64,000 nt of DNA from Psammoneis japonica (lineage: Eukaryota): assembly GCA_008632985.1 (NCBI GenBank), contig QPGO01000013.1:744001-808000 (forward strand). Direction: 5' to 3'. The stretch's first letter is position 1. Every line of letters begins with the position of its first letter. The notes under the pieces were generated by a model. The model had not been told where the DNA came from, did no database searches, and saw only the letters and a list, made by a program, of their open reading frames with translations. Made by a program: the position numbers and the translations under genes. Below, piece by piece: positions 6,402 through 49,421 of this stretch.

Positions 6402-7403
6402 ATGAACAAATTCACTTTAGCGGTGAGGTCTTACCAAGGTCTTTCTCAAGCTTTTCTTAACAAATTACGTGGCCACGATCCAGCGTTATCGTTGTTGGAG
6501 AGTAATGATTGTTTCTTGGACGGTGAAACAACCCGATTCTATCTGAACTGGACAGATGTAGATGCGGGAGAGTGCGCTGGGACGGACTGGATTGCAATTT
6601 TTATTTTATTTCTAATGGTTCATACAGTCAGTTGGTGGAGCCGATGGCTCGTTTGGGAGCCTGTCGCAAACTGGTTGTCGCGAGAGAATCGCAATTGGGA
6701 CCATGACACATGCAAGAAACTCTCCATGAACATGACAGCTGCTATGTTCTTTACAGTGTCGGGAATATTCGCGCAAAATATCATCTTTGGGAAACCGTGG
6801 CATCAAGACCCATCTCAGTGGAGTCATCCTGTTATCGCCGTCGAACCTGATTTCAAGTTTTACTATTTGCTCTATGCGGCCAGGTTCTTTTCAGATGCAA
6901 TTTCCCTTCCATTTGAGGATAGACCGAGACAGGCGTTCATTGCGAGCTGTATTCATCACTTTGTAACTCTTTCACTGGTGTTTTTGTCAGCTCATTTCGG
7001 CTACAATCGCATAGGTGGCGTCATTATGTCTTTTTTTGACTGGGCAGACCCCCCGCTACTTATCGGCAAGGCGTGCAAATACCTGAGTACCGGCAATGAT
7101 GCCTATCAGCTTGCCGCCAATCGACTCTTTGAAGTGTTCGCCCTTGTCTTCTTCTTGACTCGGATCATTCTTTACAACTATGTTTGCTTCATTGTATGGC
7201 GGGATTTCCAACCCATGTCATCGCCGGTGGGCATTATTTGCTTTGCGTTTCTTGTTGCGCTGGCAGCCTTGCAGACCTACTGGATGGGGTTGATTGTTCA
7301 AGCTGCAATCAGAATGAACGAAAGTGGTGGTAACGTGGAAGATGTCCGAGAAAAAAGAAATCATCGTAGCTGCTGCTTTCGGAGGTTTGACTTAGGAAGG
7401 TAA
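6402..7403 (+). CDS. Ceramide synthase (Lag1/TLC domain)
   Basis: Lag1p motif equivalent HHFVTLSLVFLSAHFGYNRIGGVIMSFFDWADPPLLIGK, plus FKFYYL, FFLTRI and C-terminal YWMGLI...EDVR; multi-pass membrane; intronless. Confidence 0.9.
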   Translation: MNKFTLAVRSYQGLSQAFLNKLRGHDPALSLLESNDCFLDGETTRFYLNWTDVDAGECAGTDWIAIFILFLMVHTVSWWSRWLVWEPVANWLSRENRNWDHDTCKKLSMNMTAAMFFTVSGIFAQNIIFGKPWHQDPSQWSHPVIAVEPDFKFYYLLYAARFFSDAISLPFEDRPRQAFIASCIHHFVTLSLVFLSAHFGYNRIGGVIMSFFDWADPPLLIGKACKYLSTGNDAYQLAANRLFEVFALVFFLTRIILYNYVCFIVWRDFQPMSSPVGIICFAFLVALAALQTYWMGLIVQAAIRMNESGGNVEDVREKRNHRSCCFRRFDLGR

Positions 7404-7542
7404 CAATAATAGAATCTTTTACTAGAGTATAATTCTTGTTGTGATATTTGATGTGACGTACGTGGCGACCGAGCTTTAGACCAGCTATTATGTCCTCGTC
7501 ACACCTCCAAGGAGAAGGTAACTGACGGTGGACTAAGACCTA

Positions 7543-9191
7543 TTACTTCTTTATCATACCACCGTATTCTAACTCACACCACTTGGTCAACACTTGGCCT
7601 ACATAAACGACTTGCGTTGGGGTCATTTCAAGGAGATTCGGCAAATATATGAGACTCTCGTTGATATCCGCTCCGACACACTTCGAGTTGGTATAATCCC
7701 ACGTGGTGTTGATCAAGGCTATCACAAAGTTGTCATTCAAGAATTCGACTAGCTTCTCCCTGCCCCCAACTTCACTAGCAAGCCACGTCAATTCAGAGAT
7801 GCCAAGGTTTTCCTTGTGCTGATGCTGGACTTGTTTTGTCAACCAGGGAAACAACTTTGAGTGAAACTTTTTGGGAGTATGACGGAGCAACAGATCTCGG
7901 TTGGCTTGCTCCTTTATGGCGATGATTGCATACTCGTCTGCTTTGCTCAGTCCATACCTCATTGAGAGTAGGTGAGGTACGGATGGCCGATGACAGAACT
8001 TCTCAACAGCGTGTTCGAATGGGGTAATTGATTTGGTTTTTCGGCTGTGACAATAAAGAGAAGCACTATGGTTAGAAACCACCAGAACACGAGCCCCCTC
8101 AATAAAGCAACAAGTCTCAAAGCTAATGGTAAAGTGTAACACAGTACTTACACTTTCAGGGAGATTGCATAAAACTTGATGTGGCCACCAGCCTGTCCCA
8201 ACAAAAAGTAAGCGGCAAGGGAAACAATATACACCATAAAGAAAGTATTGTGAGAGATCATCAGATGCACCGTCTGCTTCAAGACACTCATGAGTCGGTT
8301 GCCATAGGTGTCAAGGGTGAACCCTTCGTGACGAGCAAGACATTTTTCATAGAGCCTTTGTCCATGCTTTGTAGCACGAAAGGCACCAAAGCCCGCTCCA
8401 ATGCACGAAGGCGTCTTGTCAATGCCACCACTCCACACACAGATATCAGCTAAGGCGTGCCCCTTGTATTGGCCAAAGAGAGATCCGCATTGAACATTAT
8501 CTTCGAAAATTGGAATATCAAAGCGTTTCCCCAACTCAAAGATAGAGTCTTGCTCCAGAGGAACCCCGAATATGTGCATACCCAAAATGAGATCACACTT
8601 CTTGACTAGCTCTGGATCGATATTCTCTAGATCTAAAGTCAAGTCACTCGGCTTAAAATCAATTTCATAGTAATCGATTTCTCCGATACCCGAGTTCTGA
8701 ATGTTTTTCAATAGAGTGTGAAAGGATCCAAAGTGAACCGATGGCAGGCAAATGCGGATCTTTCGCCGACCCGTCCGTTCCTCTGCTTCGTCCAAGAGCG
8801 TCTGGATGACACACAAAAACAGGACACGACACGAATGCGTAATCAACACGTTCGTGTCAGGAGCCGGCTTTAAGATGCTACGAAAGGACTGCTCCACGAC
8901 ATTGACGAGCTTGTCGCGATCCTTGACAAAACAGCCCTGAAGAAAGCACCTGCAGTGATGGATCAAGAGCTCGCTGAACTTGGTGGAAACGCCACAAGCT
9001 GTCACAGGGACGACTCGTACAAGAGAGACCAAACAACGCCAATGAGCTTTAAGAAAGAGGATGCAGCAGGTGCCGAACCCCACCAATGCGCAAGAAATGT
9101 TGAGCGGAAAAGGGTCCAACAGAAAAGCATCCGTCATTTTGCTGCTTGTGTGAATTGCAAGTGCCCTTGATCGTATGGTTGTTCCCTTCAA
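7543..9191 (-). CDS. DegT/DnrJ/EryC1/StrS-like PLP-dependent enzyme with N-terminal hydrophobic segment; intron 8045-8151
   Basis: HIFGVP, PIFEDNVQCG and VWSGGIDKTPSCIGAG resemble fold-type I sugar-aminotransferase PLP motifs (Asp and catalytic Lys present). A GTAAGT...CACAG intron joins ORFs 8148-9191 and 7543-8142 in frame. Confidence 0.7.
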
Positions 9192-9555
9192 CAGACATGT
9201 CAGTATTTCTAGGGAAGAGACAATGCGACTAGCTCGGAACGAGATAGATCTCTCATTTCACTTGAAGTTTGCTGCACGGAGCACCAGCAACGGAACGCAT
9301 CATGGGAAAATTGTGGCGCAATTTTCTGCTTTGGGTATCTATTTTATTCATTCGTTTATACTATTCATTGTTAGATTTGCGCGGGAACATCTTCTGAAAA
9401 AAAGAATACTCAGTATATCGGTACTTGAATATACAGTATGAATAGAACGGAAAACTGAATCAATGGGCACTCACATGCTGTAATACAGTGTCGTAGAGGA
9501 GTCATGTTGCTTCAATGGAATGTAGCACAGGTAAAACGGAGAACGGAGGGCCAGC

Positions 9556-11081
9556 ATGGAGCATTCCAATAATAACAACAATAGCACATTCTCAATTCAA
9601 GATGTGGAGTCTCACTGTAGAGCAAATGACTTTTGGACCGTAATTGACAATGTTGTCTATGACTTGTCGGGATATCGCGACGATCATCCTGGAGGGGTCC
9701 TGATTATGAATGCCGCCGGTGCCGACGCGACGGTTTTGTTTCACCAGTATCACATGTGGGATCCAGAAAAGGCCCAGAAGGTGCTGCGAAAGTTCCGCAT
9801 TGGAGTCTTGAAAAAGGAGGACGATTCCTCTTTTGTTAGTCCCAGTATGGGAGAATTTTGGCACGTGTCGTCTCAGCGGGTCGTTGCTCATTTGAAAAAG
9901 GAGAAAATGGAGCGTCGTCCCTTCTACGCCAAATTGTTGTGGTTTGTTGATTTGGGAACTCTATTTCTCATGTACTGTACGGCACTTACCTTCTTGATCC
10001 TGAAAAGAGACGAACAGCACCACTCTGGCTCATGACGGTTTTTCACCTACTCATTATAAGCATGACCACGCTGAGAGTGACGGGTCAAATGCACGCCAAT
10101 GGGCATAGTCAGTTGTGGCAACCCAAGAGCTCAGCCTGTTGGTTCGCAGAGGTGTTTGGCCTATTCATGGGATTGCCGGGAATGTATGGCTTCTCGTTGC
10201 CTCATCACGATGAAAATGGCCGCCGGCTTCTCAATGAACCCCGGACTATTTCGCAGTACGAACTTCCCGCTGGACGCGGCTTTTCCGAACACACCGCCGT
10301 CCATCACGTTAAGGGAGTTCAGTTGGAAGAAGATCAGTGCCACCTTCAAGCTGCTGCCTTTGGTGTACAGCGCTTGTGCGGGACGGCCCGATACATGTCC
10401 GTGATTCATCGCTTTCAAGCTACCTTTGTTTTTCAGACCGCCCTGAATGTACTTGGAGAATTGGTGGATTGCACCCGTGTGTCTCTCATTCCTCCCCGAC
10501 TTGTTTATGTGGCCAAACACTTGGTCCCGAATGGGGAATATGTACGAAGTTTAGCCATTGTAATTGGATCTTGTGCGGCTCCCTTATCGTCGTGGTGCTA
10601 CCTGGCACTTCCTTGTAGCGGCACGTATGGCTTTGGCTTCTTTATCATGCTGGCTTTGTTGCGTAACTACTTTGGCATGTTCTCATTGCAGGTCTTTTGG
10701 GCGCAACACGTATGGGATTATCCGGTAGTGTCAGAAGCTGAAGTTCATCGAGATTGGGGCCGTTACAATGCCGAATCTAGCTACAGCTGGCAACCGAGCC
10801 GTGCTGATCAATGGCGACACCCATTTTTGTGGGGCAGCCTCAATGGTTCCAGTCCCGCGACGCTGACCTATCACTTGGAACATACCCTATTTCCGGGCTT
10901 GAATTACCACCTCCTGCCGCACATTGCTCCGATTGTGCGTCAAACTTGTCGCGAATTTGGTTGCAAATACCACGCCTTTTCTTCAACGCAAGAGCTGCTG
11001 CAATGTCGTCAACAAAAGTTAAGGCTGTATGCCCATGGTCAACCCAACATTATTCTTGACAATACCAAGAAACGCACATGA
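9556..11081 (+). CDS. Cytochrome b5-fused membrane desaturase (front-end/sphingolipid-type), split by a frameshift near 10000-10035
   Basis: HPGG heme motif in ORF 9556-10035; His boxes HANGH, HTAVHH and HLEHTLFP in the overlapping ORF 10032-11081; no intron signals at the junction. Confidence 0.8.
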
Positions 11082-11416
11082 GGAAACGATCATCACTCTA
11101 CAATTGGTCGTGTAAAGATCCACACAAGATACCTTTCTACGGCAACGCATGTGGTAGTTAAAATAATACTTCTATGCTCTGTTTGCTGCTATGACCCAAG
11201 CCAGGCTGCTAAAAGTAGATTTACAACAGTTTACTCTTTCTTATTTTGTGTATAAATATGTACATAAAAAATGGTGTTTGCCCGGATACGAAGACACAGA
11301 GAACAGAGACAACGGATCTCTGGCCACCGTTGGCAGAAACTATGATGAGACCCGGGCCACAATTTAACCGACAACCACTGTGCATGTGACTTTGTCGCTG
11401 CTGCAATACCCACTGT

Positions 11417-12112
11417 CTACGATGCCCTGCGCTGGGTTGTTTTTGGGCAAGTGCCAAGCGCTTGGTCCCAGAACGTGAAGAACGGCTGCTGAAATGCAAC
11501 AGCTTCCTTTCCAACCTGCATGTGGTGATGACGGTGGCATTCAGCATTGTTGGGAAAGCACGTGAAGGGGTCAAATGGGAGCATGTGTCCGCAGTGGGCC
11601 GACACTGTCTTTGCAGAGGCTGCAGTGGCCAAAAGAGCACTTTCCTCTGCGTGCAGGCTGCAAACCAATGTTGCAAAAATGATGCATCCTGCGTCTGCAA
11701 CGAGCAACTCCCAAAAAGAGTTGTGGAGAGCTGAAAAGGTGAGCGGCTGGCGAAACTTGTGGTGGGCCTTGTGCGTGGTTTCATGCAGCAGCGGCACCGC
11801 ATGCAACGTGCAATGAACAAAGTGCTGGTGCGTGTCAATGGCGACAGCTCCGAGCACCATTCAAAGAAATCTGACCCCATTGCCCTTGGCATGCATGGCA
11901 TCATTGCCAAAGAAGTGTTCTGTGAGAGAATGCATGAGCTGAAGCTGCAAGCACCGGATGATCGCCTCGTTCACGTGCTCATTTGGAGGGTCAGATTTGG
12001 CGATCTTGTGGCGGCGGAAGAGGTCGAAGTGCTGGATGGCCGTGTGCACGCACGAATGTGCCATGTAGGACACAATCGGCCATGACGCTGTCACGAAGCG
12101 AGTGAACGACAT
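11417..12112 (-). pseudogene. SUR2: Sphingoid-base C4-hydroxylase (SUR2/SBH, fatty acid hydroxylase family), hypermutated, in-frame TGA at 11861-11863
   Basis: DTHQHFVHCTLH, HKAHH, KTVSAHCGHMLPFDPF, FPNNAECHRHHH and QPFFTFWD match the Sur2 pattern (DTWQYFxHR..H, HxxHH, KTVDDHCGYxLPxDPF, NNAxYHDxHH, QPFFTFWD). Probable ATG at 12112. Confidence 0.88.
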
Positions 12113-12538
12113 TCTATTGCTGTGTGGGGCAAGTACGAGCACCGGTGGCTGTTCGATTCTCGACAGTGATTGATCACCATTGTACCGTAAGTGTCGACAC
12201 TCTCGCTCACACGCGACTGCAAACGGCAACGACTCTAATTTCCGGTTGAAGTTGAGTACCGCATGTGCAACCCAAGTTTGGCATGCTCTATCAATGGCTT
12301 GCATGTACGTATGATAATAGATACTAATAGTTGTCCGTTGCTTTTGTCTTTTATGCACTCTTGAAGTTTTGGTAAATTTACTTAAATGAAGTATGAGTAG
12401 GGCCATGCTCGCTCTGGCATACTTGAATATGCATGTTCGCCAATTCTTTTATTGTTAGCGATGCCTTGCTGGCAATTGCGTAATCGAAGATAACTTTACA
12501 TACATACGCCGCACACCACATCTACTTCGTTCGCCACC

Positions 12539-15121
12539 ATGTTAAATAGCTTCGATGCCGATGGCCCAAGAACTTGGTCTGTTGAGAAGAAAGAGAACGT
12601 CCATTGTGCTTCTCGTCGTTTTTTGGATGAGAATCGGTGGTATGCTACTTTGGCGTTGAGCCTGGGTATTACCTTTCTCTGCCTACTGTTGGTGTGCATG
12701 TTGCACCAATACCTTAGAATGGTTGTTACTATGTGGGATTGCCTCTTGCACATCAAACTGTGGTTTGCCTCCGGGATTTCCGTGCTCGTTACACTCCTGT
12801 GCTTGTGGAGAGATCGCGCACGCTGCCAAAGGGTCCGCTCATCTTATATCCATCAGAAGAAATTTGCGCTGGTTCTTGCAATTTGTATATCCCCGGTTTC
12901 GATTGTCCAAGAAATTTTCACCCTTTCGTTTCCCTCATTTGCCATCCTGCTGAATCCAGGAGCATGGGGCTCGTTCAAGGTTTATGATCCTGCTCATATC
13001 CAACAGGTTCGTCATTGGTGACAGATAGTTCTTTCTTTCTTTCTTTCTTTGAAGTATTTCCTCATCTGTGATCTTTCCAACGGTTTGCCCTATACAAGGA
13101 TTTGTTGGGAATATGCCTCAACGATGAAGAGATTGAAAACGAAACTGTTCGTAATGACTTATGCCTTTCCGAAGCAAGCTGGAGTTCCTTAAGGTCAGTT
13201 CCATGTCCCAGTGGCGTTTCATCTCACGACAGTGTAGTTTACAGACTCTTCTGACCCCTTTTCTGCTGTACTTAGCTCTGGAGCTCTCTCCATTCGAAGG
13301 TCTCAAGATGTGCAAACTGTGTTCGAGGGTGTTCAATACGCTCGGCAATCCGGTGGTTTGGTCGTAAACATTCTGGCACGTGACACGGCACGTGCCATCA
13401 ATCCTTTGCGTCAAAACATTGAGGGTCTGATGCTATTCTTTTCCAATGTATCAGTTGTGGTTTTTGAGAATGACAGCGAGGATGACACCAGGGAAGCCTT
13501 CAAGAAATGGTCGTCTGAAGCGCAAGGGTATTCTGTTGATTTGATCGAGTGTGAGGAATCGAAGGACTGCATGTTTGGCGACATTCACCGCTACGATACA
13601 GACGATGATAGCTTCGAAAACAGTGTTATCGGGAAAATGGCTTACTATCGCAACAGGGCTCTGTCGTATATACTCAACAAACCCGTGTACCAGGACTACA
13701 GTCACATATTGGTCCTTGACATGGATCTGGCGATCTCCATTTCGCCTCTCGGTGTCCTCCATACGTTGGGATCCAAGCCAGATAATGCCGTGGCGAGTTC
13801 AGGAAGAGCTATCCTTAGAGGGTCCTTTGGAACTCGACGTCTTCCTTACGATATGGTGTCATTTGAACCACAACTAAAGAGAAGTAACAGGTGGCTTGTG
13901 CATCTACACCAAAAGTATTGCGAGGTGATGCCACAAGGGTCTCGATGGAGGAACCTTTGCGAAGACGTAAGTCCCATGAAATCGATGCTAATGTCCATCG
14001 AGGATGCCCATACGGAACTTTATCAGGTACAGTCTGCATATAATGGCGCCGCACTGTATCCGTTGCATGCGATTCGTCAGGCCAAGTATAACACCGGGAG
14101 CTACGGACAGCGCTGCGAACATGTTGGCTTCCACTTATCTCTAGACGAACCTGTCTTCGTCAACTCCAAGTGGAACATGAATTTGAGTCTAGAACGTCCT
14201 CCTGGACCATCCGGGGAACAAGCTTGGACTGACATAACCTATGTTTTGTTGTCGTTAAAGCTTTCATTGCTGGTGCTTGGGCACAGGATACTAAGCCTTT
14301 TTCTAGTGGCATGGTGCACAATCCGGATGCTGTTGGCATGTCTCAGCCAAAACGAAGCTAGGGTGCTGCCCACTACTCATACCTCCACATTTCTTCATTC
14401 TTCTAGTTGGATGACAAGACGAGTATTCGAGCTAGCCTTGGCCTACCCAATTCTCACCTGGATTGCTCGGTTTGTCAATTTGTTGGTAGACGACGTTTTT
14501 TATTATCCTGTTCTCTTTATGGGTTGGTCGGTTTCGACGGGTGGGAGCTGGGGCGAGCCTTGTTTCTTTCAAAGCCTGTTGACACGGACTGGTTGGTGGA
14601 TGGTTACTGAATCAGTTCTAAAGATGATAATTCAGATGCCCCGACCAGTGCACTGTGAGGAACCAACAGTGATTCTCCCCGGCGACCATTTCGCATTTCC
14701 GTCTGGTCACTCCTTTCGTGCCTTTGCACTAGCTCGTGTGCTGGCTCGTGATCCTTTTCTCGGTTCGAAATTGCCGTCTGCAGTTTTTCTGGGATTGCCA
14801 ATGTCCATTGCTTGGGCTCGCGTGGCCCTCGGCAAACATTCAGTGTGCGATGTTGTATTTGGTTCCATTCTGGGAATGATGTTTTCAGATTATTTGGAAC
14901 CGGCTGTTGGCTTGCAGGCACTGTCCAGTAACTTCTGGTGCTGTGTGCTCTTCTTTAGCATAATTGGGATGTTGTGCCTGGTTGACCCATGGATGCCCAT
15001 TTGCAAACAAGTTTGGCAAGTCACGGGTTTGCGGAAGCAAAGCGAAAGACTACTATTTCTCTCTTTGTGTTGTGGTGGCTCTTGGGTTGTTCTGGTTGGT
15101 TCTAGTTTCAGTGGCTGTTGA
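12539..15121 (+). CDS. Membrane protein: N-terminal TM region + GT-A glycosyltransferase (CAP59/GT69-like) + C-terminal PAP2 lipid phosphatase; predicted exons 12539-13006, 13099-13193, 13276-15121
   Basis: GT motifs FENDSEDDT, MAYYRNRAL, VLDMD, SAYNGAALY, CEHVGFH; PAP2 motifs KMIIQMPRP, FPSGHS, ARVALGKHSVCD. Two GT-AG introns give one 803-codon frame; the intron calls are by eye. Confidence 0.8.
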
Positions 15122-18100
15122 ATGCAATGCAATGCGGAACCCATTTTGATAAGAACAAGAACCCATAATTGGTAAATGGTGTGGAAAAAGTTAAATTCCG
15201 TACAAAAATGTCCTTTTTCGGCCAAAATTTTCTTGAACGCCCTGTGCCCTGCACCGGGCTTTGGAATGCCCTCGCCCGTTTCTCTTCACTTTTCACTCAA
15301 AAATCGAAAAGCATCATGTTGACCATGGCAAGTTGCAGCCACCCCTGCAGCACTAACAATGATGGTGACAGAGGGCAACCCAACCAAGAAGAAGAGGATG
15401 GATTGGGAGGGGTGGCGTGAGTCGTCATGATGACTGCAGCGAGGCAGAAGGGGGCGATGCTGCCAATGCCGCCTCACCTCAAGTCATCAACTCCAACCAC
15501 CATTCACCGGGTGCAAGCAACCCAGCAATCTCACAATCACAAGTTGCTGTCAGCCTGTCAAATGAAACAAAGGTCGCTTCATGAGATCATGCAGCCACTC
15601 TGGTGTTGCTCGAAGCAGCTCTGAAGCATGCGAGCAATGTCGTGACAGCCAAGGACACAGAGGCTGATTTGATGTTTGTGGTGGAACTCATCAAATTGTC
15701 CCCAAAACAATGGCAAGATGAGCACTCAAATGGCTGCAAGGTGGGCACAATGAAAAGATTTAGATCTGGCATGATTCAGAGATGCAGAAATCCAAGAGCT
15801 TGACAACATGTTCAGCTCTTTGGTGGAGTCTAAAAAGAGCCATGTCAAAGCAGGAGACAAAGGCAGATCACTGCACAAGTTGAGGTTGTGGCACCTCAAT
15901 GATGATGGCAGCTGCACACATGATGATCTGCCACTCCACTGTGGTGGGCTCTGCAACAACTTTGTCAACTGTGCTGACACAAACACAACAAACGGGAAAG
16001 CAGCAAGAAATGACATTTGCCTGGAATGTGGGCACATGTTGAACAAGAAGAGGAAAGTCTTGTTTCATTGGATGCAAGAGGAGGTTTCAGAAACAGCACA
16101 ATCTGTGTCCTCATTGCACTCTGTGATGTTCTGATTCAATTGAAAACCCCAGGGGCTGAAAATTTGACAAGTTTGTTGCTTTGTGTTTTGAGACAGATGT
16201 GACAAAATCAATGAAACCCAAATGGCAAAGATTTGCTTGACAGCAAGATCCCATCTTTGGTCGCTGTTGAAGTGAGTTGGGGCTCAGCTAACTTGCTTTT
16301 TCTTTGCAAGGTGTCTTCAAATGTGTTGCAAATTCTGCAACCATGACACTGTCCCAACTGAGGGAGAATGCAGTGAACAAGACATCAGTTTTGACATTGT
16401 TGTGATTTGTGACATTGCACCAGAGCTGTGTGAAGTGATGTTCCACCATTGAAGAAGAGAGTGATTTTGAAGAATTTGATGATGCTCCACCTGATGTTGA
16501 GAGTGGAGATTCTGCCCAGAAGAAAAGTGCCAACTTGCACTGCTGCTGACTGCAACAATTGTGCAAGTCAAAACCTGTGCCACTCTTTGGAAGCAACGTT
16601 CATCAGAAATTTCAGTGCAAGACAAGTGGCTCATCACTGTGGAAACTTTTTTACAAGAATTTTGGAGAAGGCTTGAAAAATGTACTCCACTCTCTTTTGA
16701 CTCAAAACAGAGGAGCAAAGGGAATGTGGTGAGTGCCTCATGCCTTCCTTTTGAATTGTTGCCATGGACTCAAGTCCAGTCATTTGTTGAGATTCAAGGC
16801 TGCTGGAAAGCAGTGCTGAAAGGTTGGGGCAATGCAAGTGTCAGCAACCAAGCTGGCAGCCAGATCAATTGCAAACAAAAGGAAGCCAGCTGGCAAAACC
16901 ACAGTTGCCACAAAATGGGTTGCTTTGTTCTCTGATGCTTCTGTGGCTTGAGCATTGTCACTTGCAATCATTGCTCTTTTCAAGCACACAAGGCCTTGGT
17001 GCATTTGTTGGCCCAGTGCATTGGGGTTGCTTGGCCTCAAATTTTGATGAGCTGCAGCTTCCTTCAGAGCCAACCAAAACTTGTGCTGTCAAAAGAATGA
17101 AAGAATTGCCAACTCTTTTTGAACAGGACAACCACTTTTTTCTTGTCTCCAGAGTGCTGCTCCTCTTTTTCCTGCTGGATGCCATGGCTGCACAAAAGAT
17201 GATGATCTTTGACATTGGTGCAAGAAAATTGGAAACTCAAATGTGATGACTGTTGTTGAGTCATGATGCAGACAAGTGCACATGACCTGCTGGCAGAGCA
17301 ACATTTGGTGTCACTTGGTTGGCCATGGCAAAAAGGAGATGGCATTTTTGTGACAAAGGAGGGTGCAGGGCATCAGTTGCTGGTGGCACATTTGAGCCTT
17401 TAGAGTGTCAAATGGGGCTGCTGCAATCATCAGCAACCAATGCCCCCCACCTTCCTTTGTTCTCAAAATCATGACAGAATGACAGCACCATTTTGCAGTT
17501 CATTGTCACATGGCAAAGAAGACCTGAGAGGTCACAAAAATTCGTCATCTGACAGATGGAGGACAGACCAAACATTCAGTCATGAAAAAGGCTGCATTTC
17601 AACCTGTGCAAAATTGTCCCAAGCTGTGGATGTTAAATGTGCACCCATTGGACTTGAGACAACATGCCAGTCCACGTGTTTCTTGAACTTGAGCTTGTGG
17701 TGTGATTGCAGTGCAGCAACTCATGCAAAACATCAGAGCCACATGTTGACACAAAAAACATGTTTTTCTGCTCCAACAGCTGTTCATCCTGAGCTCAGCA
17801 ACTGATGATGCTTTTGGCCTGTGGCACCAGCAAACAAGGCATTGACAAGACTGTTTTTTTTTTTTTCAGTGTGAAAATCCACAATGAGCTCATCATTGAG
17901 AAAGATCATTGTGCACAACATGCCAAATGGTGCTGTGACAGCATGGCACATGATGAGAAGAAACTGCCAAAAAGTGTGCAGAGACTGTGGTGGAAGAAAA
18001 ACTGCAGACAAGGCATGACCGGAGCATGCACAGAAGGATGGTTGGAAAATCCAAGATGTGAGGCTGCCAAGTGGCACACAGTGACTTTTGACAGCTGGAG

Positions 18101-18144
18101 TTGGTTACAGAAAACCCAGAGAAAGCTGTTTTTGTTGACAAAAC

Positions 18145-20278
18145 AGCAAAGACAAAACAAGCCATGAGACTGTTCTGTCCTCACACTTTGTTTTTTTTGT
18201 TTGCAGTTGTTTTGCTACATCTGCAAGATTGGGCTCTGTCATGTGGCGTTGAAGATTGCAGACCTCCAATGGCACTTCTCAGCATGGTCATTGAGTGGCA
18301 GTGACTGCCTCTCTGAGCAATGCCGTGGATGAACAAAAGGTGCAAAAAATGCAGCAGAGTGGAGACAAGAGACTCAGAATCCAGAGCCCTGCACAAGCAT
18401 GGCAGCGCAACAGGCAGTTTTTGGCCTTTTCACTCCCAGCTTCACAAACACTGCTTCAGGGGGACATCCACCATGATTTTGATTGCCTCTTTTCTCTGTG
18501 TTGCAACCACCAATCATGCACGCTGACTTTGGCAAGGGAAGATTCTCCTGAGACATGTGTGTGCAGACTTTTTTGAGTGAAAGTCACTGTTTGTGTTGGA
18601 GCATGAGCCTTGTCTCATGGGTTTTCATGTTGGTGTGGTGCCACAGAATTTGTTGTTTTGTCACATGGGCCATGATGTCAGTGCACTCAGCCTCACTTTT
18701 TTACGTCATTGTCAAGGACAAAGTGAGTTGATTGAATTCTTTGGAAGGTGCATTGTCCCATGTTCAATGAGCTGGCAAACATGCCACACGGTGCAGTGGC
18801 CCAAAAATGAGCAACAAAATTTCTTTTCATGATGGCTGAGAGAGCCACTTTGCAAGATTCAGCATGTGGTCAAAGAGACCAACAAGATGATGAAGATGTG
18901 ATTTGGCACTTCTCCACAAAATGACAGCAACAAAATGAAAGAGCAGCCACATTTTTGGGAACACTCAACATGCAAGTGTGTGCAAAACACACTAAAAAAG
19001 ACCTTTCTTGATCTCACCATGGATTTTTACATTGTCTGCTGAGTTGCAACACTCAACTTTGCCCCACCCCCTGTTCAGATGCAGCAACCCACATTGAAAA
19101 TGAGGCATGTTGTTGACATTGAGCCACAGCTTAGGATTCAATGATCTGAACAGGATCTGCTCTGGTGCATTCAAGGCAGGCAAAGTTTCTTTTTGTGCTG
19201 GAAAAAGATGTTTCACTTTGAATTTTTCAGAGCAGGGATCTTGGCACAAACAAGTCATCATGCACAATTGAGTGCACTTGCCACAGCATCTGTCCATTGT
19301 GGCTCTGATGGCACATTTGTGTGTTTTTCTCATTTCTCAAGTGTGGTTTTTGTGGAGTGTGATCATTGTCTTCCTGTCACATTTCATGGCAACAGCAGCT
19401 GAGTTGCTTGCTGCACCAGGGGAGGGCAACATCTTTGGAGAGGCAAAAAGATGGGGCACAATGCATGAAGGGGGGGGTTCTCCTGCAGAGCTCAGCACTG
19501 CACGCACAACTGGTTGAATGCAGCCAGGCACTGCTGTGTTGCTGTGGCACACAATGACAAAAAACTGAAAAAGGAGCATGTGGAGACTGCAATGAAAAAA
19601 CTTGGTGAAAAGGCATGGCAGCATTCATGGAAGGATGGTGGGAAAATCTGAGATGCAAGGTCAAGTGGCAAGGGCACTTTTGATGGCTGTGGAGTCATTT
19701 TTAGAAAAAAAACAGAGGAGAGCAAAGACAGAACAAATGACCAAACTGTTCTGTCCCTCACACTTTGTTTTCTTGACTGCAGCTGTTGCCATGTCTGCAA
19801 GACAAGACTCTGTTGGATGGCATTGAAGATCACAGACCTCTGGAGGCATTTCTCAGCATGATCATTGAATGGCAGCAACTGTCCATCTGACAAGTGATGC
19901 AGATGAATAAAAGACATGTGCGGCAGAGCGGTGCTTTAAACAAGAGACTCAGAATCCTCCAGAGCCCTGCACAAGCCCTGCAGCACAACATTTTTTGGCC
20001 TTTTCACTCCCAGCTTCAAAACACTGCTTCAGGGGGGTGCTGACTGCAGCAAGGGAAGTTTCTGCTCAAGCATGTGCATGTGGACCTTTTTGAGTGAAAG
20101 ACACTGTTTGTGTTGGAACACATTGGCCCAGTCTCATGGGGTTTTCATGCCAGCACGGTGCCACAGAATTTCTTGTCATCATGTGGGCCATGTTGTCAGA
20201 GTGCTCAGCCCAACTTTTTTGCTTCATCGTCAAGGACAAAGTGAGTTGATCAAATTCTTTGGAAGATGCATTGTCCCA
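18145..20278 (+). repeat. Diverged direct repeat, ~18145-18760 and ~19721-20278
   Basis: Shared blocks in the same order: ctgttctgtcc(c)tcacactttg, caagagactcagaat, ttggccttttcactcccagcttca, gtcaaggacaaagtgagttgat. Confidence 0.85.
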
Positions 20279-20441
20279 TTTTGTGCTCAGATTGTTGAAT
20301 TTTGAGCTTTGTCACCTGGGGCTGGCTTTGAAGAAATTGAAACTGTGGCTCAATGTTGACAACACACCCCATTTTCAATGTGGTGGGTTGCTGCATCTGA
20401 ACAGGGGGCGGGGCAAAATTGAATGTTGCAACTCAGCAGAC
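19035..20441. repeat. Inverted duplication of ~100 bp (19035-19130 minus; 20340-20441 plus)
   Basis: Both copies translate as KLWLNV(N/D)N(M/T)PHFQCG(G)LLHLNRG(W/R)GK(V/I)ECCNSAD on opposite strands. Confidence 0.85.
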
Positions 20442-21532
20442 AAAACCATGTGTGATTGTGCCAGACAACTGGCAATGGTTGGCAAGTTTTGAGGCAGTCT
20501 GTTCAGCCCATTTCCCTGAATGAGACAAGCACTGTGTTGTTTCATGCAACAACATGCAGCCAGTCTTGTTCTGGTTTTGATTCTTCATTTTTTGTGCCTG
20601 CCCACCACCTTTGGTGTTGTCATCAGACTGTCTCCACATTGGCCTGCTTGTCTTAGTGACAAATTTTTCTGAGCCTTCACTTCAATTTTGGTCAAGCAAT
20701 CTGAGGACTTTGTGGTGTTTTCTCTCTGAAAGCAGCGCAGCTCAGATGACCCAGTTTTCTCAGACTCAAGCCTCTCAAAAATGCGAGCATCAGCACTCTA
20801 AATCATGCCAATGCAACCCACTGCCACTTGCTGCCATGTCTTGGTGGTTGTCTTGATGTCTTCTTTTTCTTTGGCAATCTTGCATTTTGTTGCCTCTTTT
20901 CTGCTCATCTTGCCTCCTCTCCTTCTTGTTGCCACCACAATGTTTTTTTGTTCATGTGTGGCCGGCACCACCAAGACAACAAAACCCACAATCAAGGAAC
21001 AAGAAAAAACACAAACACACTGTCACAGCCTTGACACATGGATGCTGTGGCAACCACATGAGTGCACCTGGCCACATGCAAAGATTTCATGATGCCGAGA
21101 CCCCTGCTCTGAAAAATTTTCCAAAACTCAGTGCAGAGGGCAGAAGACAACAGTGCGAGACAGAGAAGAAGCATCAAAATGTCGGGCATGCCGGACCCAG
21201 AGGTGAATTGGGTGAGAGTGACAACATTCGCTGGAACATCTCATCTCTCAAAGTGTGGACTGAAAGACCGAAGTTAGCGGTTTTGTACTAAGAGCTGCAC
21301 ATTTGAAGCCTCAGAGGCAGGTCAAAATGACATGATGACAAGCGTGGGAAATGCGAGCTATTTTTTAAATTAGACCTCAACTGGAACAAGAATGATCATC
21401 AAAGATACGAGATCGATCGGATTATCGCGTTTGATCCAGATCTTTCTGCTTCTTCCAACATCGTCACTTTGCAACAACCGAACAACAAACAACAACTCCA
21501 TAATCAATACGTTGTAGTGCATAAGAATCATC

Positions 21533-31930: not shown

Positions 31931-34900
31931 CTACAACCAAGCTTGGTAGTTAGGTGCCATCATGCAGAGCCTATTTGGATCCGTCGCCTGTTCCAGCAGC
32001 TGGGCGACACGATGATCCACAGGCTCTTCCTCCAACTCACTGCTGTTTTTTGCGGGCTTCCTCGGCTGGCACTCTTCAAATCGAGACTGAATCATGGACA
32101 CATTCTTGGCGACTCGATCAGAGAGTTGCTTTTCCAGTTCCTGCGTCTTGACGTCGCTTTTAGCCATGGACTTTGAGGTATACCAAGACACAATGTCATC
32201 ACGCAACAGTAAGCGAAGGGCCGAGTCGAGTTCCTCTTTATGACTCGTCACGGCGGCTGCAACCGTCGCAACGGATGGAATGAAGCGACCCTCCATCATG
32301 GTTGGACCTATGAGATTAGAAATATTGGCTGTCATCCGAAATGGAATTTCATTGCCGTCAAGAAACCCTAGATTGAAGCGAGCAAGTGCAAGGTGAGTTC
32401 AGAAGCTCAGTTTGGATGCAGAAGTACTCATAAGCAAAAGTACCCTACCTTGATTGCTATAAGCAAGGCGAAACTCTGGTGATACCACCCGCCCATTTTT
32501 GACGCTAAACACAACTCTCGACGGAGTTCGCTCAACAACGCACAATGCATGTTGCATCAAGGAATCAACCGCCAGCTGCTGCGCAAATGACCGACGGAAT
32601 TGAAACAACCGCTCTGGACCATCTATCCAGGAATGGACGTGCTTCAAAAGCATCTTGTCATCCACCTTACTTTCGCACACCTCCTTAAATACCTTGAGCC
32701 TTGTAGCCTGTTCGATATCTTTTGGCGATGATTCGGCATTCTTGCTCTGTTCTTCTGTGTTCTGCGCTGCGTCTTCTAGAATTTTCGCCACTTCTTCCTG
32801 AAAGTACGTTGCGACACTGTCAAAAGACGTCCCATCGTTTTCGCAAGCTTCTCTGTAGGCATCATCCAGAGATATCCTCCCGTCGGCTTCCGCCGTCATT
32901 CGCAACCTTTGGGCAATCGGAATAACAGCACTAGGTTGTACCGACAAACTCTTGCGACAACTCATCATGTCACGGCGAAGCACTGTGTCCAATAAATAGT
33001 GTAGCTGTGTGGTGCGCTCATCTGTGCGTGTCCAATACGGGATAGCAAATTGCAGCAAGAAGCGGTAGCTGCCATGGCGGAAAACAGGATCAGAGAAAGA
33101 ACGCAAAGTAAGCCAACGACAGCGCAAGGGAAGGCAAGTAGCGTGAAAAACGTGAACTAGGAAGTCTTACCTTTTCCCATCGCTTCCCACCATCCCTATC
33201 CGTCGAACTAACTGTTCGTTTCGTCGAATAACATGAACGTTCGATTCAAATTTCACAAGTTTCGCATGGAGCTCCGGACTCGGTTTCGAATCTTGCACAC
33301 TTATACTGTTTGGAACATATTGGCCCGGGATTTCGATGCTCGCGGATCCGCCTCCATAGTGACCCCCGACTCCCTCTAACGCAGCCGCAGCCGCCACTGC
33401 GGATGCGGCCGCAGCTGCAGCTGTACTGGCAGCCAAAGCGGATGATGCGGAAGGCTGACTGAGACTTCCACTCGACGACTCTCGTGCCCGCTCCCGGGAC
33501 GAGCTCGATTGACGAGGATCACAAGCCCCAGCCCAGAGATCTGGAGTGTCACTCGCAAACAACGCCAGTGAAGGAGATGATTCAACCAGAGGCAGTGAAC
33601 TTGGTGTTGATGACACCTGAGATTCCAAGAGTCGTTTCCACTTCTTAAGGCGAGAAAGGAAGTCCCTTAGACTTGGCTTATTTGGTTGCTGAGGACTGTT
33701 CTCAGCATCCCCGATAGCGAAGTCGGATTCAAATGCGTGTCTGTATTTCTTCTTAAACTCGGCGGTCTTTCTGGCTCTCTCGTCCGTCTTGTTCGGATTC
33801 GAGTCTGATGGAGATGTATTGAAGAACTTAGCAGATATTCGCCCTAATGTTTTTGCGACTGACGCCAGAACTGCATCTCCGTCATCATCGCTTTTTTCGG
33901 GATGTTTCGACTCTGCACGTTCCAGAAGGGCCGATATCGTAGCAAGGAGCTCCTCCTCGTATGAAGGGCGAAACCTAACTATGAGCTCTTCGAGTATGGC
34001 CTCCAGTGAGGTCCACAGTGTCGGGTGTGCCCGACGCAACGACGACATGAGTTCTTCCGCAAGAACCACTGATCCTTGGTCCTTTTCTGGCACTGTTGCC
34101 GACCCCCGAGATCGCACCACGTCCCTTCGTTCAAGGTAGAACGCCCGGAGCGAGAAGTAAAGCGCCTGAGGGTGAGATTTGACGATCCCGGTGAGAATAG
34201 CTTTCGCGGCTTTTCCTTCGATTCTGCACAAGCTTGTGAGCAGCTGCGGTATCCATGGAAGCCATACCCAAGGCGGAAGAGTCGCTCCGCGTGTCTCGAG
34301 CGTCTGGCAAAGCACGCCCGGAGATGATCCGTCTTTCGCAAGCATCCATAGACATCTTGCTAGGTGGATTCGAGACCACTCGTGAGCATCGCACTGAATA
34401 GCTTCAAGGTAGCATCCCATAGATTGGGCCAAGTAGAGTGCTACTTTTTTCGTAGCAGCCGCAGAAGCATCCTGCACCATACTCAATGAACGCGTGCATG
34501 AGATTCGACGATAACGGAAAACAACAGAGACTGCCAGACCTTACCGCCCCGGCTTCCGCACTCGAACTAGCAGCTTTGCTTTCATTCTGCTTCTCTGTCA
34601 AGAAACCGAGCGAGGCACAGAGACCGCCCCAACTCACCCACGCTCTAGAATAGGAAGGACAAATTTTGATTGAGTGACAATACGCCTGATTCGCCTTAGA
34701 GCGCCCGCCAAGCGAAGCGAGAAACATAGCTTTCAGACGAAAGAGTTCACTTTTCTGCGCCGTGTCGAAAAAAGATAGATTGGTTGTGTTCACCATATTC
34801 AATCCCCCAGTTCTCTTTTATCAGACTCAGGATTGTCGTATATGAGGATTTGTTCCCGGAGTTTGGAGAATGCATCTGACACGTCCATCGCGCAGTCGGT

Positions 34901-37900
34901 CAACTTATTCAGAGCGAGCAACGCAACCTTAACAAAACAGAAGCGCACGTTGCTTAAGATCACAAACGAGTATCAAAAGGCAGCTTCATGATAATGAACT
35001 CACTTCTCGCAATCCCTGTTTCCGCGCCGTCTTGGCCATTCGAATTGCTGTCCATGGACGATCGTGAAGGGTGGCAAGCGTGCCGGGTTCAACGACGGCC
35101 TGGAAATTAGATGTGATTGCACTGAACATATGTGTTCGCCACAGGAAGAGGTCTTCCCACACGGAAAGCCTTTCGAATTCATTCGGCAAACGGTGTCGCC
35201 ATGCGCTGCGCGAGCAATAGGTATGCCAACCAACAGCGTTAGATCTCCAGCCCTTCAATAAGACTACAGCAATAAAGACCCACAACCAAACTCACCTGAG
35301 CAAATTCTTTAAATCCGGGAGTGTCCGTCCACTTGCGTGATTCTTCGTTTCCACCATTATTTGTCCTGACTCTCTCAATTCAACGAGACGATGGAAGAAT
35401 TGAAGCAAACAGACATGAGCGTCACTACCACGAGATATGTCCGGCAGCAGCTGCCATTGGTGAAGAGAGAGCTGAGCCGTTTGGGCGTGGAGGTTTTCAA
35501 CTTCACTTAATTTTCCTTCGGCGATCGCAAGAAGAATTTCACTCATTTTAATACATGGATCCCCCATTTCCACTGCGGCTACAAGAGAGGATTTTGTGCA
35601 TAGTCTTCGAACAGAGTCCCAACTTTGCGATTTCCACGCAGCTTCCAGGAGAAGTCGCGGGTTCTGCGATGATTTGGCATACTCTGATACTACCTGCCAC
35701 TGGCCCATTTCTTTCTGTAGGCCGATCCATCTCTCCTCCCAAAGGTCCAGCTCGAAATCAGACGGAATTGGCTTGTCGGACGCTTCGGCTTTTTCGATAA
35801 GAGCCTCATATGCGTTAAGAGCCTCAATGACCATGCCGTGACGATCCAGAGAAAGTGCCCACTTGCTCTCCTGCATCACGCAAGACTTGGCTGCTAGAAC
35901 CAAACCCGAGTCAGACTCTCCGAGGCGATTGTAGCAGGTGCGAACCGCTGCTTTCGTCTTTTCCTTCACAGCAGAAACTTGCGGATTAGCAGTGTCCATA
36001 GACGACATCACTGAACCTTGCCTCTCGAGAATCGACAGCACCTCATGCCACGAGCTGTAACTATCTGCAAGAGTTAGCAAGAGATCGGTGTCAATTGATG
36101 GCGTGGGTCTCAATTCCCCAATAGCTCGAAGTGTCGTTTTCACAGCGTTGTGTCTGGCCGTTCTTAGCCTGCACCAAAACCCCTCATCGGAAACAGCTGG
36201 TACGGCTGGCGACTGCTTTAGAAACTGGGAATGAAACGGACGAGCCAACAAGGATTCCATCGCGGGCACTATTTCCAGTCGTATGTAGTCATTGGGAAGC
36301 TTCGCCCACGCAGAAACAAGCAAGCTTTTGAACAGGCGTTGGCAAAGAGAAAAGTCACCGTGTGCGAGAACTCTAACGGAATCAATGCACTTCCCACGTG
36401 CATCCGTCAAAGACGACTTCTCTTCATTCATCTGCTTACAAAAAGCACTGTAGCAGTGATCGAATTTCTCCAGCCTTTGTACGTAGAACGAAGAGGAAAC
36501 TTCGTCGCTTTGACGAGGTTGAGGCAACCACGTCCCGTCCAGTCCGTCGACAACGGAGTGTACCTTAGAGCATAAACGCACACCACCAGCGCGTTTGCTG
36601 GTAGCCAACAACGAATCGACGAACACTGCATTCCAATACCTACCACCCAAGCCTTCGTAATCGCTGTGAAAGAGTTGCCACAAGACATCCAATGGGCTAC
36701 GGCTACGGTTCCGTGCGCCTTCAAGGGGAGTGTTGTTGGCGTCGTCTACACCGCTGTCAGAGAATGAGGTACTTCTTGAGGCGAAAAAGAAAGCTTGCAT
36801 GCCATAAATATCGAGAAGTTTTGACCGTATCGATGGGTTGGCACTTAGCAGACAAGCGACAACCGTCCTTCCCATGAAGCAGTCACGATTCACAGTTCGT
36901 CCGAAAGTCGAGCCACGTGGAATGGAATAGCCATCTCCCCTTCGCATCGCCATTACAACACACGCAACAAGATCAGCAACTGGCTGCGCCGTAACGTCAG
37001 AGAGCCCATTGAAGTCGAAGGAGGAGAGCTTCCACAGAAAACTATCCCTTTCTTTTGACGTCAATAGCCCGTCGGATTCCTTCGCGACCAACCATTTGCC
37101 GATAATACTGACACAGGTCATCAATATCTGTACATTGTCACTGAGGTCAAGCAGGTTGCTGACAACCTGAAAGAAGGTTCGTCTGTTCACTGTGAAGGAC
37201 AATGGAACGCTGCTACTGGCGACAAGGCGCAGGCATTTAGTTAGACTTCTCAATGCCGTACCCAGCGGTTGCACATTTCGCCCTTGTTGCCCGTCGTTCA
37301 CTACCGCGGGCTTAGAGTTGCCGCTTACAACCGTCTGTATGTGCTCCCCGGAGCATGCGTCTGAAAAAATACCGGCCGTCGGCGTTACATGCATTTCATG
37401 GACGACCCGCGATCCCATTTGTTGAGAAGACGAGGAAAGATGCCTCTGGTGTGAAGACGCTTCTTGCGCGTGCTTCTTTGCCAAGTTCTTTGTTAAAGAA
37501 GACAGGCTACCAACAAACCTCTCCACGAACTCAGGGTTGGACATGCATATTTTCTCGACCACTTCAACGCAAAACCACGCAGGGCAATCATCGCCGACAC
37601 CCTTGTAAACGCCAGGAGCTGTCTTCTCTTTGGTTCTGGCGTCGCTCTGTCCAGCGTTGTCTGAGCCTCTCCCGTTTGAGCCTGTCAACTCTGAGGCGTC
37701 TGGATTGGTCGCATCAACAATGGCCTTCTCCATGATAGCCGAGATTTGAAAAAGATCTTCCTCGTAGAAAGTGACGCCGCTGTGTCGAGAGAACACCTGG
37801 ACAAGGAATCTTCGAAGCTGCTCCCTGATACTTTTGCCTTCTTCGCTGCCAGCTCTGGAAATACAAGGCACCATAATTTCTTTTATCTTCGAGGCATTGT

Positions 37901-46876: not shown

Positions 46877-47285
46877 GGTTCTTCGATCTTCGATCGGTGC
46901 GTGTTGATTTTGCGCTTGCTGTTTGGGTCGACACCAACGCACTCATGGACGGACGACTTCGCGCCTTTTTGCGCGCATGCTCGCGCGTCAGGAGTTGACA
47001 CGCGCGCCAAAACGGCCGTACGTCCTTCGACCGGATGGAATGGTAGACGACGCGCGGACCACCGAACGCTGTTGGTGTTGACCACCATGATGGGACCATG
47101 GCGGCTCGATGATCATCACATCACTCCTGAGCAGGTCGGTCAAGCATCCAGTTTGAAAGAATCGTCTCGCACTGAACTGAAACGAGGTGAAATCAAATTA
47201 CCATAGAAGAAGTCATTTGAGGCGGTGAAATAACAGTTGCTACGTCGAAGTAAGAAAAGGTTGGTATTCTTTTTGCGTGAGCACC

Positions 47286-49421
47286 ATGATGTGCTGGTGG
47301 CAAAAACGGTTACTTGTCGCGATGGTATTATGCGAAACAACAGTTTCGGCATTTACTTCCTTGATTAAAACAAACTTCAAGCATTTTACAGTACAACAAG
47401 AGCCGAACCCACTTGTGTTGTCACTCAGTTTGTACGAGGAAGAAGAACGAACCACACGTCGAAGTAGAAGAATACGTCCGATGCGTCCCAACAGCGTAAA
47501 TCAACAAGAAGCAGAAAAACAACGTGTCGCAGAACAAGCTCAACGCGAGGCTCGACAATTGGCAGCACTACAGGATCCCACCTTGCTTTCTCAAACCAAA
47601 TTTAACGACATTCCCGGATTAGACAAGCGTCTTGCGCGAGCGTTGACGGATCAAATGGGCTTTGAGAAAATGACAGACATTCAAGCAAAAACGTACGCAC
47701 TCATTCTAAACGGATCAAACGTCGTTGGTCAAGCGCGAACCGGAACAGGCAAAACCCTGGCGTTTCTAGTTCCAATACTGCAGCAACTCTTGCAGGGAGA
47801 AACAACCTACATGGCGGGACGCAACATTGGCGCCTTGATTGTTGCACCCACCCGTGAATTGGCACAACAAATTGCTTCAGAGGCAGAGCTACTCCTGACT
47901 CATGTCAATACCGAAAACATTTCCGTTCAATGCTGTTTTGGTGGAACCAAAATGTCTCGAGACATTAATGCCTTGCGGAAACGACTGCCGACGCTCTTGG
48001 TGGCAACGCCGGGTCGATTAAAGGATCACTTGGTTCAAAAGACAAACATCAAGGGACGCAAGTTTGCCAGCATTTTACGAGAAACATCCATCTGTGTCTT
48101 GGATGAAACGGATCGTTTGTTGGATATGGGCTTTCGTAAAGACATTCAATCCATTCTGAACCACTGTGCGCGTCCCGAGAAACGACAAGTATTACTCTTT
48201 TCGGCAACCATTCCAAGAAACATGCAAATGCAAAGCATTTTAGGAAAAGAGTCGTATCAGCACGTTGACTGCTGTACTGGTAGTGCAGTAGATGATACGG
48301 AAAATAGTCGGGCAAGAACAAGGCCGCAACGACAAGATACAAACGTTCGAGTAGAGCAGTCTCATGTTGTATTGCCATCCATGGATCGATACGTATCAGC
48401 CCTCATTCAGATTCTATTGGAGTTTACTTCCTCTCAAAAACAAAACAGCAAGATTGTCGTGTTTTTGCCAACGTCAAGGACCGTATCCTTCTTTGCTATG
48501 TTTTTGGAAATGGCTCTCGACAATTCCATCCCAATCTTTGAAATGCACTCGCGAAAGTCACAGTCCGCTCGAAACAAGGTTAGCAGTGACTTTCGAAGGT
48601 GTAGACGCGGTATCCTACTAACCACCAATGTGTCAGCACGAGGTGAGTATCGAGAGAAACGGTTGGGTAAGGAGAATTGCATTGTTTTATTGTATTGTAT
48701 TACTTACACCGAATGTTTGTCTCGATTTTTACCTTTTCAGGTATTGACTATCCTGACGTGACGAATGTCGTGCAGGTAAGCCGTGTTGTTGGGAGACTGC
48801 TTCTACCATCATCGGTTCGATTGTCAAATCTTTGATTGCTCACAATATCCATTTTGTAATCTTGTCAATCACAGTATGGAGCACCCGACAGCAAGGAAAA
48901 CTACATTCACCGCTTGGGCCGCACAGGTCGAGCTGGAAAAGAGGGCCAAGGTTTGTTGGTGTTATTACCCTTTGAAGAAAGCTTTTTAAGACAACGGCGA
49001 CGAGGAAGACGCATGGATGGCATCCCGGAAAACGAGCGCATCTCACAAATGCTAAATGAACCGGTTCCAGAAGAAATGGTTGACTTGCTGGAGCCGCTAC
49101 AACGACGCATTGCGAGCGGCGACGCCAAACTTACAATTGGCGCTCAAGGGGTAAGTGGGCCAGAATGACTTTCAAGCTTATCTGTACTGTGTCTCACTGA
49201 TTGTCGATACTTTGTCTTTTGTGTTTCAGGCATATCGAGCCTTCCTAGCTTACTATGTGGAGCAGAAGCAACAATTAGGTCTTCAACCTATAGACGTTGT
49301 TGAGAACGCCAATCAATTTGCAAAGTGTACAGGACTGAAGTGGATACCATCAGTATCCGAATCAATTGTCTCAAGACTGAAGCTAAAAGGAGTTCCCGGA
49401 CTCGTGGTTGAAGATGACTGA
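47286..49421 (+). CDS. DEAD-box RNA helicase (Mss116/Has1-like, DETD variant), probably plastid-targeted; three introns in the 3' part
   Basis: GFEKMTDIQ, ARTGTGKT, PTRELA, TPGR, DETD, SAT, HRLGRTGR; N-terminal signal-like segment ending TVSAF. Confidence 0.88.

Follow-up and report, generated by a model that had tools for sequence, protein, structure and literature searches.

How several kilobases of a nuclear genome can come to be almost devoid of both the TpA and the CpG dinucleotide is the question raised by a block at positions 15200-21270 of a 64,000-nucleotide stretch of the diatom Psammoneis japonica (contig QPGO01000013.1, positions 744,001 to 808,000; hereafter the window). An earlier reading of the bare sequence (the original prediction) had described this block as repeat DNA stripped of both dinucleotides by two superimposed processes. 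Our analysis leads us to consider it likely that the block is decayed repeat DNA of the diatom nuclear genome whose sequence was altered in situ by two transition processes, one at TpA and one at CpG.

Background rates (TA 3.96%, CG 5.66%) were taken from 54,099 bp of the same window, which has a GC content of 48% and outside the depleted tracts shows observed/expected ratios (o/e) of ~0.57 for TpA and ~1.0 for CpG. These rates predict 240.6 TpA and 343.6 CpG in the block, which carries 20 and 43, respectively (Poisson P 6e-76 and 1e-93), and is thus indeed stripped of both. Its TpG and CpA sum to 1375, with 1456 predicted on full conversion of TA and CG to TG or CA. The core of the block (coordinates of all features are given in Table 1) retains 18 TA (o/e 0.04) and 22 CG (o/e 0.08) and carries 652 TG (o/e 1.83) and 611 CA (o/e 1.88), compared with background o/e values at 21501-59000 of 0.57, 1.01, 1.14 and 1.16 for TA, CG, TG and CA, respectively. 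TG and CA of the core together number 1263 vs 1319 predicted from background TG and CA plus all background TA and CG, and the core GC content is 45-46% vs 48%, conversion predicting a shift of about -2 points. The six 1-kb windows from 15001 to 21000 gave TA o/e values of 0.16, 0.04, 0.03, 0.05, 0.07 and 0.03, TG o/e values of 1.66-2.00 and CA o/e values of 1.60-2.03; the longest TA-free gap inside the block measures 718 bp vs a median of 17 bp. Conversion is ~92-96% complete and the edges are sharp, the block lying between a PAP2/CAP59-type gene that ends at 15121 and a short-chain dehydrogenase gene that starts at 21533 (Pfam on open reading frames, ORFs). The two losses have nested boundaries, as had been claimed: the left edge (15210-15650) holds 1 TA where 17.4 are expected and 16 CG where 24.9 are expected, the right edge (21150-21270) holds no TA and 5 CG where 6.8 are expected, and CpG thus persists at both edges where TpA is already gone and is rare in the core. 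The competing account named by the original prediction, base composition plus CpG decay, does not yield the computed TpA deficit, since CpG decay removes no TpA.

A comparable signature was recently described in Bigelowiella natans (bioRxiv 10.64898/2026.01.13.699255; statements below follow the parts of this preprint that we drew on). In mutation-accumulation lines, 231 of 302 mutations fell in two integrated viral regions, 230 of these 231 were A>G or T>C, and the AT>GC changes were, per the text, all on TpA; the local de novo rate was raised ~1000-fold, episodically between lines. The B. natans genome carries 124 clusters of TpA-poor, CpA+TpG-rich 1-kb windows (at least 3 windows in a row with a Rho of at most 0.43 for TpA and of at least 1.52 for CpA+TpG), reverse transcriptase and DDE domains are over-represented in its low-TpA reading frames, and the authors propose an ADAT2-like DNA adenine deaminase. 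By the same cut-offs, the six 1-kb windows at 15001-21000 form such a cluster. The likeness extends to the change of TpA to TpG or CpA on both strands, the kilobase scale of the tracts, the gain of CpA and TpG, and low-TpA reading frames that lack annotation.

The direction of the change can be read from another target in the window, a fatty-acid hydroxylase (PF04116) pseudogene. A TA-free stretch at 11419-12065 spans nearly its whole reading frame (TA 0), CpG is not depleted there (32 vs 36.6 expected), and a single Tyr is kept in 231 aa. The closest relatives are P0001 (62% identical, BLASTP) and P0002 (139 of 231 aligned positions). Eight columns carry Tyr in 65% or more of 34-60 homologues; there the pseudogene has His at 5 and Cys, Leu and Tyr at one each, and at the 15 columns with Tyr in at least two of the four closest homologues it has His at 9, Cys at 2, Phe at 3 and Tyr at 1; Arg101, 93% conserved among homologues, is Cys in the pseudogene. 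Given that Tyr is encoded by TAY only, His by CAY and Cys by TGY, the change went from TpA to CpA or TpG. The direction A>G or T>C at TpA thus appears in the alignment of the pseudogene; for the 6-kb block we infer it solely from the CA/TG doublets described below. P0002 (546 aa), the closest intact relative of the pseudogene, carries ~300 extra C-terminal residues past the hydroxylase domain, and a search of metagenome contigs for relatives of its locus found none. As TAA and TAG vanish with TpA, long spurious ORFs arise, e.g. one of 249 aa out of frame over the pseudogene (11221-11970, minus strand), and gene callers could annotate such ORFs of depleted tracts as proteins.

The two losses are separable. 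TpA is gone and CpG kept in the pseudogene stretch and at both edges of the block, both dinucleotides are lost in three tracts (the core, 59851-61600 and 63755-64000), and no tract within the 64-kb window shows the reverse pattern, CpG gone and TpA kept. Given that TpA-only tracts exist and the reverse does not, the TpA process extends over more sequence or proceeds more quickly than the CpG process, in line with the wider-reaching TpA conversion that the original prediction had placed beside CpG decay. The CpG deficit with its matching TpG/CpA excess is limited to repeats, and genes keep a CpG o/e of ~1, as expected of decay driven by methylation. The second block (59851-61600) holds about three tandem units of ~315 bp (60662-61590) by BLASTN; Tandem Repeats Finder returned 0 rows on 59500-64000, and no Pfam family was found in the six frames of 59700-61700 with stops read as X. 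To the right of this block, at 61600-61940, some TpA remains, though little (there is a 208-bp TA-free gap at 61732-61940), and CpG is normal; this segment overlaps the start of an unannotated 288-aa ORF (61636-62502), and the TpA process may here have spilled over into a neighbouring gene.

A single enzyme or repair defect that converts both CpG and TpA to TpG/CpA would explain why both losses coincide in three of the four tracts with the same end products, and ADAT2-type deaminases are reported to act on both A and C (cited in 10.64898/2026.01.13.699255). We nevertheless regard one common process as unlikely: TpA-only tracts exist (the pseudogene and both block edges), the mutations in the hypermutable regions of B. 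natans are described as falling on TpA, without a CpG burst, and the mutated base lies 3' in TpA but 5' in CpG, such that one preference does not fit both.

Surviving TpA are biased in their flanking bases. As had been predicted, a pyrimidine precedes most of them (17 of the 20 in the block). Pooling the 19 survivors of 15202-21270 with the 5 of 59851-61600 (n=24), YTAR (Y, pyrimidine; R, purine) accounts for 14 of 24, compared with 17.1% of 2122 background TpA (binomial P 6e-6) and with 22% of the core TG/CA contexts (P 1e-4), and RTAY accounts for 1 of 24 compared with 31.7% (P 0.001). The enrichment of YTAR and the depletion of RTAY among survivors support the proposed preference of the conversion for RTA/TAY. 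The count of only one R-TA-Y in the block has to be corrected to two, the boundary TpA at 15201 (g-TA-c) being RTAY too.

TG and CA of the core are about equally frequent (652:611) and randomly ordered (runs test z 0.4), and 250-bp bins show no heterogeneity (P 0.92). Since they are equal in number and random in order, a single strand-specific event is excluded. As a test of strand choice by flanking bases, we used the ratio of YTGY/RCAR to RTGR/YCAY, which is 1.46 in the core, 2.14 in the second block and 1.23 in the background. A model in which the hit A is the one with a 3' pyrimidine beside it predicts 1.58, which the core ratio approaches; the ratio of 1.13 in the TpA-only tracts fits no strand choice (1.17 predicted) and rejects the 3'-pyrimidine model (P 0.0015), and the Tyr sites of the pseudogene discriminate strand choice at only 2 sites. 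The asymmetry of the cores may stem from the CpG component, e.g. a 5'-pyrimidine preference, or may instead reflect ancestral composition.

The evenness of the two strands bears on the next alternative, ADAR-like A-to-I hyperediting at the RNA level, whose edited element transcripts would have been reverse-transcribed and inserted. The 5'-U preference of ADAR (10.64898/2026.01.13.699255, in the part drawn on) agrees with the TpA context, and the TA-free tract of the pseudogene is limited to the reading frame, as in a retrocopy. Hyperediting of RNA would, however, be one-stranded, whereas TG and CA are randomly interleaved in the core, and His (9) and Cys (2) occur within one and the same pseudogene. 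Furthermore, copies duplicated in place diverged afterwards (see below), and six-frame Pfam analysis revealed no reverse-transcriptase remnant in the block. Together, these points make an RNA-level origin very improbable.

The block contains one direct and two inverted internal duplications, and parts of it have paralogous contigs in one DNA sample, in keeping with the repeat DNA of the original prediction. Identity of the direct repeat is 71-80% and rises to 86-93% when the sequence is collapsed to purines and pyrimidines; that of the first inverted pair rises from 88.5% to 97%, with 9 of 9 substitutions being transitions, and the second inverted pair is clear only after the collapse (87%). 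Given this rise (overall from 71-88% to 86-97%), most differences between copies are transitions. Neutral alignments of the three repeat pairs gave 137 transitions and 58 transversions, and 74 of the 137 transitions form 37 adjacent CA/TG doublets, compared with 8 adjacent double transitions of the five other types. CA in one copy opposite TG in the other points to an ancestral CG or TA whose outcome was settled separately in the two copies; conversion thus followed duplication. A special AA/AG mutation class was also considered and dropped, as the 63 non-doublet transitions vs 58 transversions look like ordinary divergence. BLASTN and purine/pyrimidine-collapsed BLASTN of the block against the window yielded only its own internal repeats above the reversed-sequence control (top score 66), no Pfam family was found in the six frames of 15200-21270 (stops read as X), and the longest stop-to-stop ORF of the block has 151 aa.

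We compared the window with one public DNA run (X1), using Logan contigs as a second assembly of the reads; no RNA run is listed as carrying the sequence. These contigs cover the block at flank-level depth (64 vs 52-64), with short stretches deeper and paralogous pieces present. At five listed places (15348, 15360, 19615, 19628 and 20788), CA or TG of the window stands against TA or CG in paralogous contigs; the reverse was seen at one listed place, 15355, with TA in the window and TG in the paralog. Between the window and the main X1 contigs there are 23 differences in ~6.9 kb, and the following classes cover the 21 of the 23 block differences that are listed. Eight are CG vs TG/CA (CG in the window in 3, in X1 in 5), five are TA vs TG/CA (TA in the window in 3, in X1 in 2), and the rest are 4 other transitions and 4 transversions. 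X1 has TG at 16683, the position of the sole RTAY survivor inside the block. These differences are compatible with continuing turnover, without proving it. Just right of the block, at 21330-21364, X1 contig depth rises sharply to ~230-700 over ~30 bp, and this is where several contigs stop; the depleted tract is adjoined there by a short element of high copy number, or an element terminus, of normal TA content.

Doublets and paralogs also speak to the origin of the composition. Some viruses suppress both TA and CG dinucleotides, and DNA imported from a viral or other donor could already have avoided both; neither homologues nor domains anchor an origin of the block. The 37 CA/TG doublets between copies duplicated within the block, however, place conversion later than duplication, the host-type hydroxylase gene shows the same Tyr to His/Cys changes, and paralogs retain TA or CG at the five listed places, with the one reverse case. 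An imported composition is therefore hardly credible and, judged from the repeat copies, the composition of the block is the product of mutation in place. That modified TA or CG of heterochromatin was misread as TG/CA by the platform or in polishing is the least probable explanation of all: the library type of X1 is not on record and X1 may be the assembly's own sample, but the Logan contigs give the same sequence at flank-level depth with only the differences listed above, the near-complete conversion has sharp edges, and duplicated copies differ in fixed outcome, whereas miscalls would yield no stable random choice of CA or TG per site.

Table 1. Depleted tracts, internal repeats and neighbouring genes, in window positions
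Feature	Position	Strand	Evidence or remark
Whole TpA-depleted tract	15202-21274	.	19 TpA in 6.07 kb
Left edge, TpA lost (1 remains), most CpG retained (16)	15202-15650	.	Dinucleotide counts
Core, CpG lost too	15651-21150	.	Dinucleotide counts; no recognisable coding domain
Right edge, TpA 0, CpG 6	21090-21274	.	Dinucleotide counts
Internal direct repeat, copy 1	17922-18761	+	BLASTN; partner 19523-20279
Internal direct repeat, copy 2	19523-20279	+	BLASTN; partner 17922-18761
First inverted repeat, arm	19032-19132	+	Partner 20340-20443
First inverted repeat, partner arm	20340-20443	-	Partner 19032-19132
Second inverted repeat, arm	19220-19353	+	Partner 20979-21119
Second inverted repeat, partner arm	20979-21119	-	Partner 19220-19353
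Second block, both losses	59851-61600	.	TA 5, CG 23, GC 51.7%
Further depleted block, runs off window end	63755-64000	.	TA 0, CG 1
Fatty-acid hydroxylase (PF04116) pseudogene	11417-12112	-	Pfam E 5.6e-16; in-frame TGA 11861-11863
TLC-domain ORF	6402-7403		
Weak aminotransferase-like ORF	8148-9191		
Fatty-acid desaturase	10032-11081		
CAP59-like plus PAP2 ORF	13310-15121		

The two processes that we favour can be outlined as follows. The first would be a targeted A:T>G:C hypermutation confined to TpA, yielding TpG or CpA, that hits both strands within bounded tracts of DNA that is repeated, duplicated or silent, and that leaves YTAR intact longest; its chemistry would most likely be enzymatic deamination of adenine in DNA, the resulting inosine being read as G. 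The second would be decay of CpG to TpG/CpA, most likely from 5-methylcytosine (5mC) in CG context on repeats. Being narrower in its domain or slower, it would leave CpG in place at the block edges and in the younger target, the hydroxylase pseudogene. Jointly the two would remove both pyrimidine-purine steps that are self-complementary and abolish coding capacity, Tyr turning into His or Cys, and Arg into Cys, His or stop. CG methylation in diatoms falls mainly on transposable elements, which lack it once DNMT5a is lost (PMC9998398, in the part drawn on). Because diatoms methylate transposons in this context, CpG decay in repeats would be ordinary diatom biology.

Several points weigh against this explanation, which we still hold to be the probable one. 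It rests on sequence, from which the composition, the origin by mutation in place, its direction, the separateness of the two losses and the flanking-base bias can be read, whereas the enzyme, the targeting rule, the part played by methylation, present activity and a defensive function are inferred. Background coding DNA served as a stand-in for the ancestral sequence. No viral or transposon domain could be recognised in the block, which leaves foreign DNA as no more than a candidate target, and one target, the PF04116 copy, is a host-type, cellular gene copy. The tandem units of the second block give few doublets (10; 20 of 91 transitions), and the half-site model of flank preference is inconsistent between the core and the TpA-only tracts. 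As to X1, it may be the sample from which the window itself was assembled and hence not independent; 13 of the 21 listed differences are CG or TA vs TG/CA in both directions and cannot be polarised, and the diversity of the block between window and X1 is not clearly above that of the flanks.

Among known systems, that of B. natans is the closest, with several differences from what we describe; for its side we again rely on part of the preprint. The host here is a diatom (stramenopile) and there a chlorarachniophyte (rhizarian). Depletion is near saturation in our block (TpA o/e 0.04), compared with a Rho of 0.45 for the B. natans region derived from nucleocytoplasmic large DNA viruses. CpG is lost together with TpA in the cores here, whereas CpG as a word is absent from the main text on B. 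natans; similarly, YTAR sparing is seen here, and that main text does not mention flanking bases or trinucleotides. One target here is a host-type gene copy, and no viral domain was found, whereas the B. natans targets are integrated viral or foreign DNA. Finally, mutations were measured directly in the B. natans lines, and are known here from the sequence.

Fungal repeat-induced point mutation (RIP) of duplicated DNA shares with the present case a dinucleotide-specific transition hypermutation, and the block too holds duplications; RIP depends on duplication and on a sexual phase. In ascomycete fungi, RIP inactivates genes, can spill past the repeat and leaves footprints in dinucleotide indices; it changes C to T mainly at CpA, creates TpA and lowers GC. 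Chemically the block is its mirror image, as TpA is destroyed (o/e 0.04) and CpA and TpG are created (o/e 1.88 and 1.83); the TpA excess and CpA/TpG deficit of RIP are not found in it. Methylation-driven CpG decay matches the CpG o/e of 0.08 in repeats vs ~1.0 in genes and the TpG/CpA excess, and accounts for the CpG half of the pattern only. ADAR and APOBEC3 likewise produce deaminase-type, context-dependent clusters of transitions against selfish nucleic acids, and ADARs are described in the B. natans preprint as preferring a 5' U; these enzymes, however, have RNA or single-stranded cDNA as substrate and their tracks are strand-pure, whereas both strands of resident DNA are evenly hit here. 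In a literature search, the signature was not found reported for diatoms or for any lineage beyond B. natans.

The genes of the window place it in a diatom. The best named relatives of the Tra1 ORF at 43916-46942 are all diatoms (Nitzschia, Seminavis, Fistulifera, Mayamaea, Pseudo-nitzschia and Cyclotella), as are those of the DEAD-box helicase at 47277-48761 (including Odontella, Thalassiosira, Cyclotella, Discostella, Skeletonema and Cylindrotheca), with identities of 38-51%. The window carries uninterrupted ORFs of 2-3 kb, whereas B. natans averages 8 introns per gene (PMC13746701, in the part drawn on); with the diatom relatives, this led us to reject B. natans as the source. The Tra1/TRRAP-type gene as a whole (33167-46942, minus strand) is divided, over ~14 kb, among about six long ORF pieces that short gaps separate. 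A single 878-aa ORF at 57033-59669 joins galactosyltransferase family 7 domains to a sulfotransferase domain, an unusual fusion. Positions 6402-15121 hold a run of lipid/sphingolipid-type genes, probably the cluster beside which the original prediction had placed the block.

We suggest that the block is in essence an example, from a second lineage, of the targeted hypermutation just described in B. natans. The window presents what appears to be the end-state of the process in a diatom, with >90% of TpA erased over kilobases and several tracts in 64 kb. Given this end-state and a gene copy inactivated by Tyr to His/Cys changes, the phenomenon is not peculiar to one species. The nesting of TpA and CpG loss bears on how the TpA process relates to DNA methylation, YTAR sparing constrains the sequence preference of the proposed enzyme, and the presence of a host-type gene among the targets bears on what marks a target. 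Depleted tracts defeat homology-based annotation of both repeats and genes. A bolder reading, which we put forward tentatively and hold to be possible rather than probable, is that diatoms, or this lineage at the least, have a RIP-like genome defence, the mirror image of the fungal one, in which DNA adenine deamination aimed at TpA would act alongside 5mC on duplicated, foreign or silenced DNA and kill duplicated host genes. If so, the system would either date back far within the stramenopile-alveolate-rhizarian supergroup or have arisen repeatedly, since the only other case is rhizarian, and a natural adenine editor of double-stranded DNA with a T-A (YTAR-averse) preference would exist. Among ecologically dominant algae, TpA hypermutation may be a counterpart of RIP that is widespread and has been overlooked.

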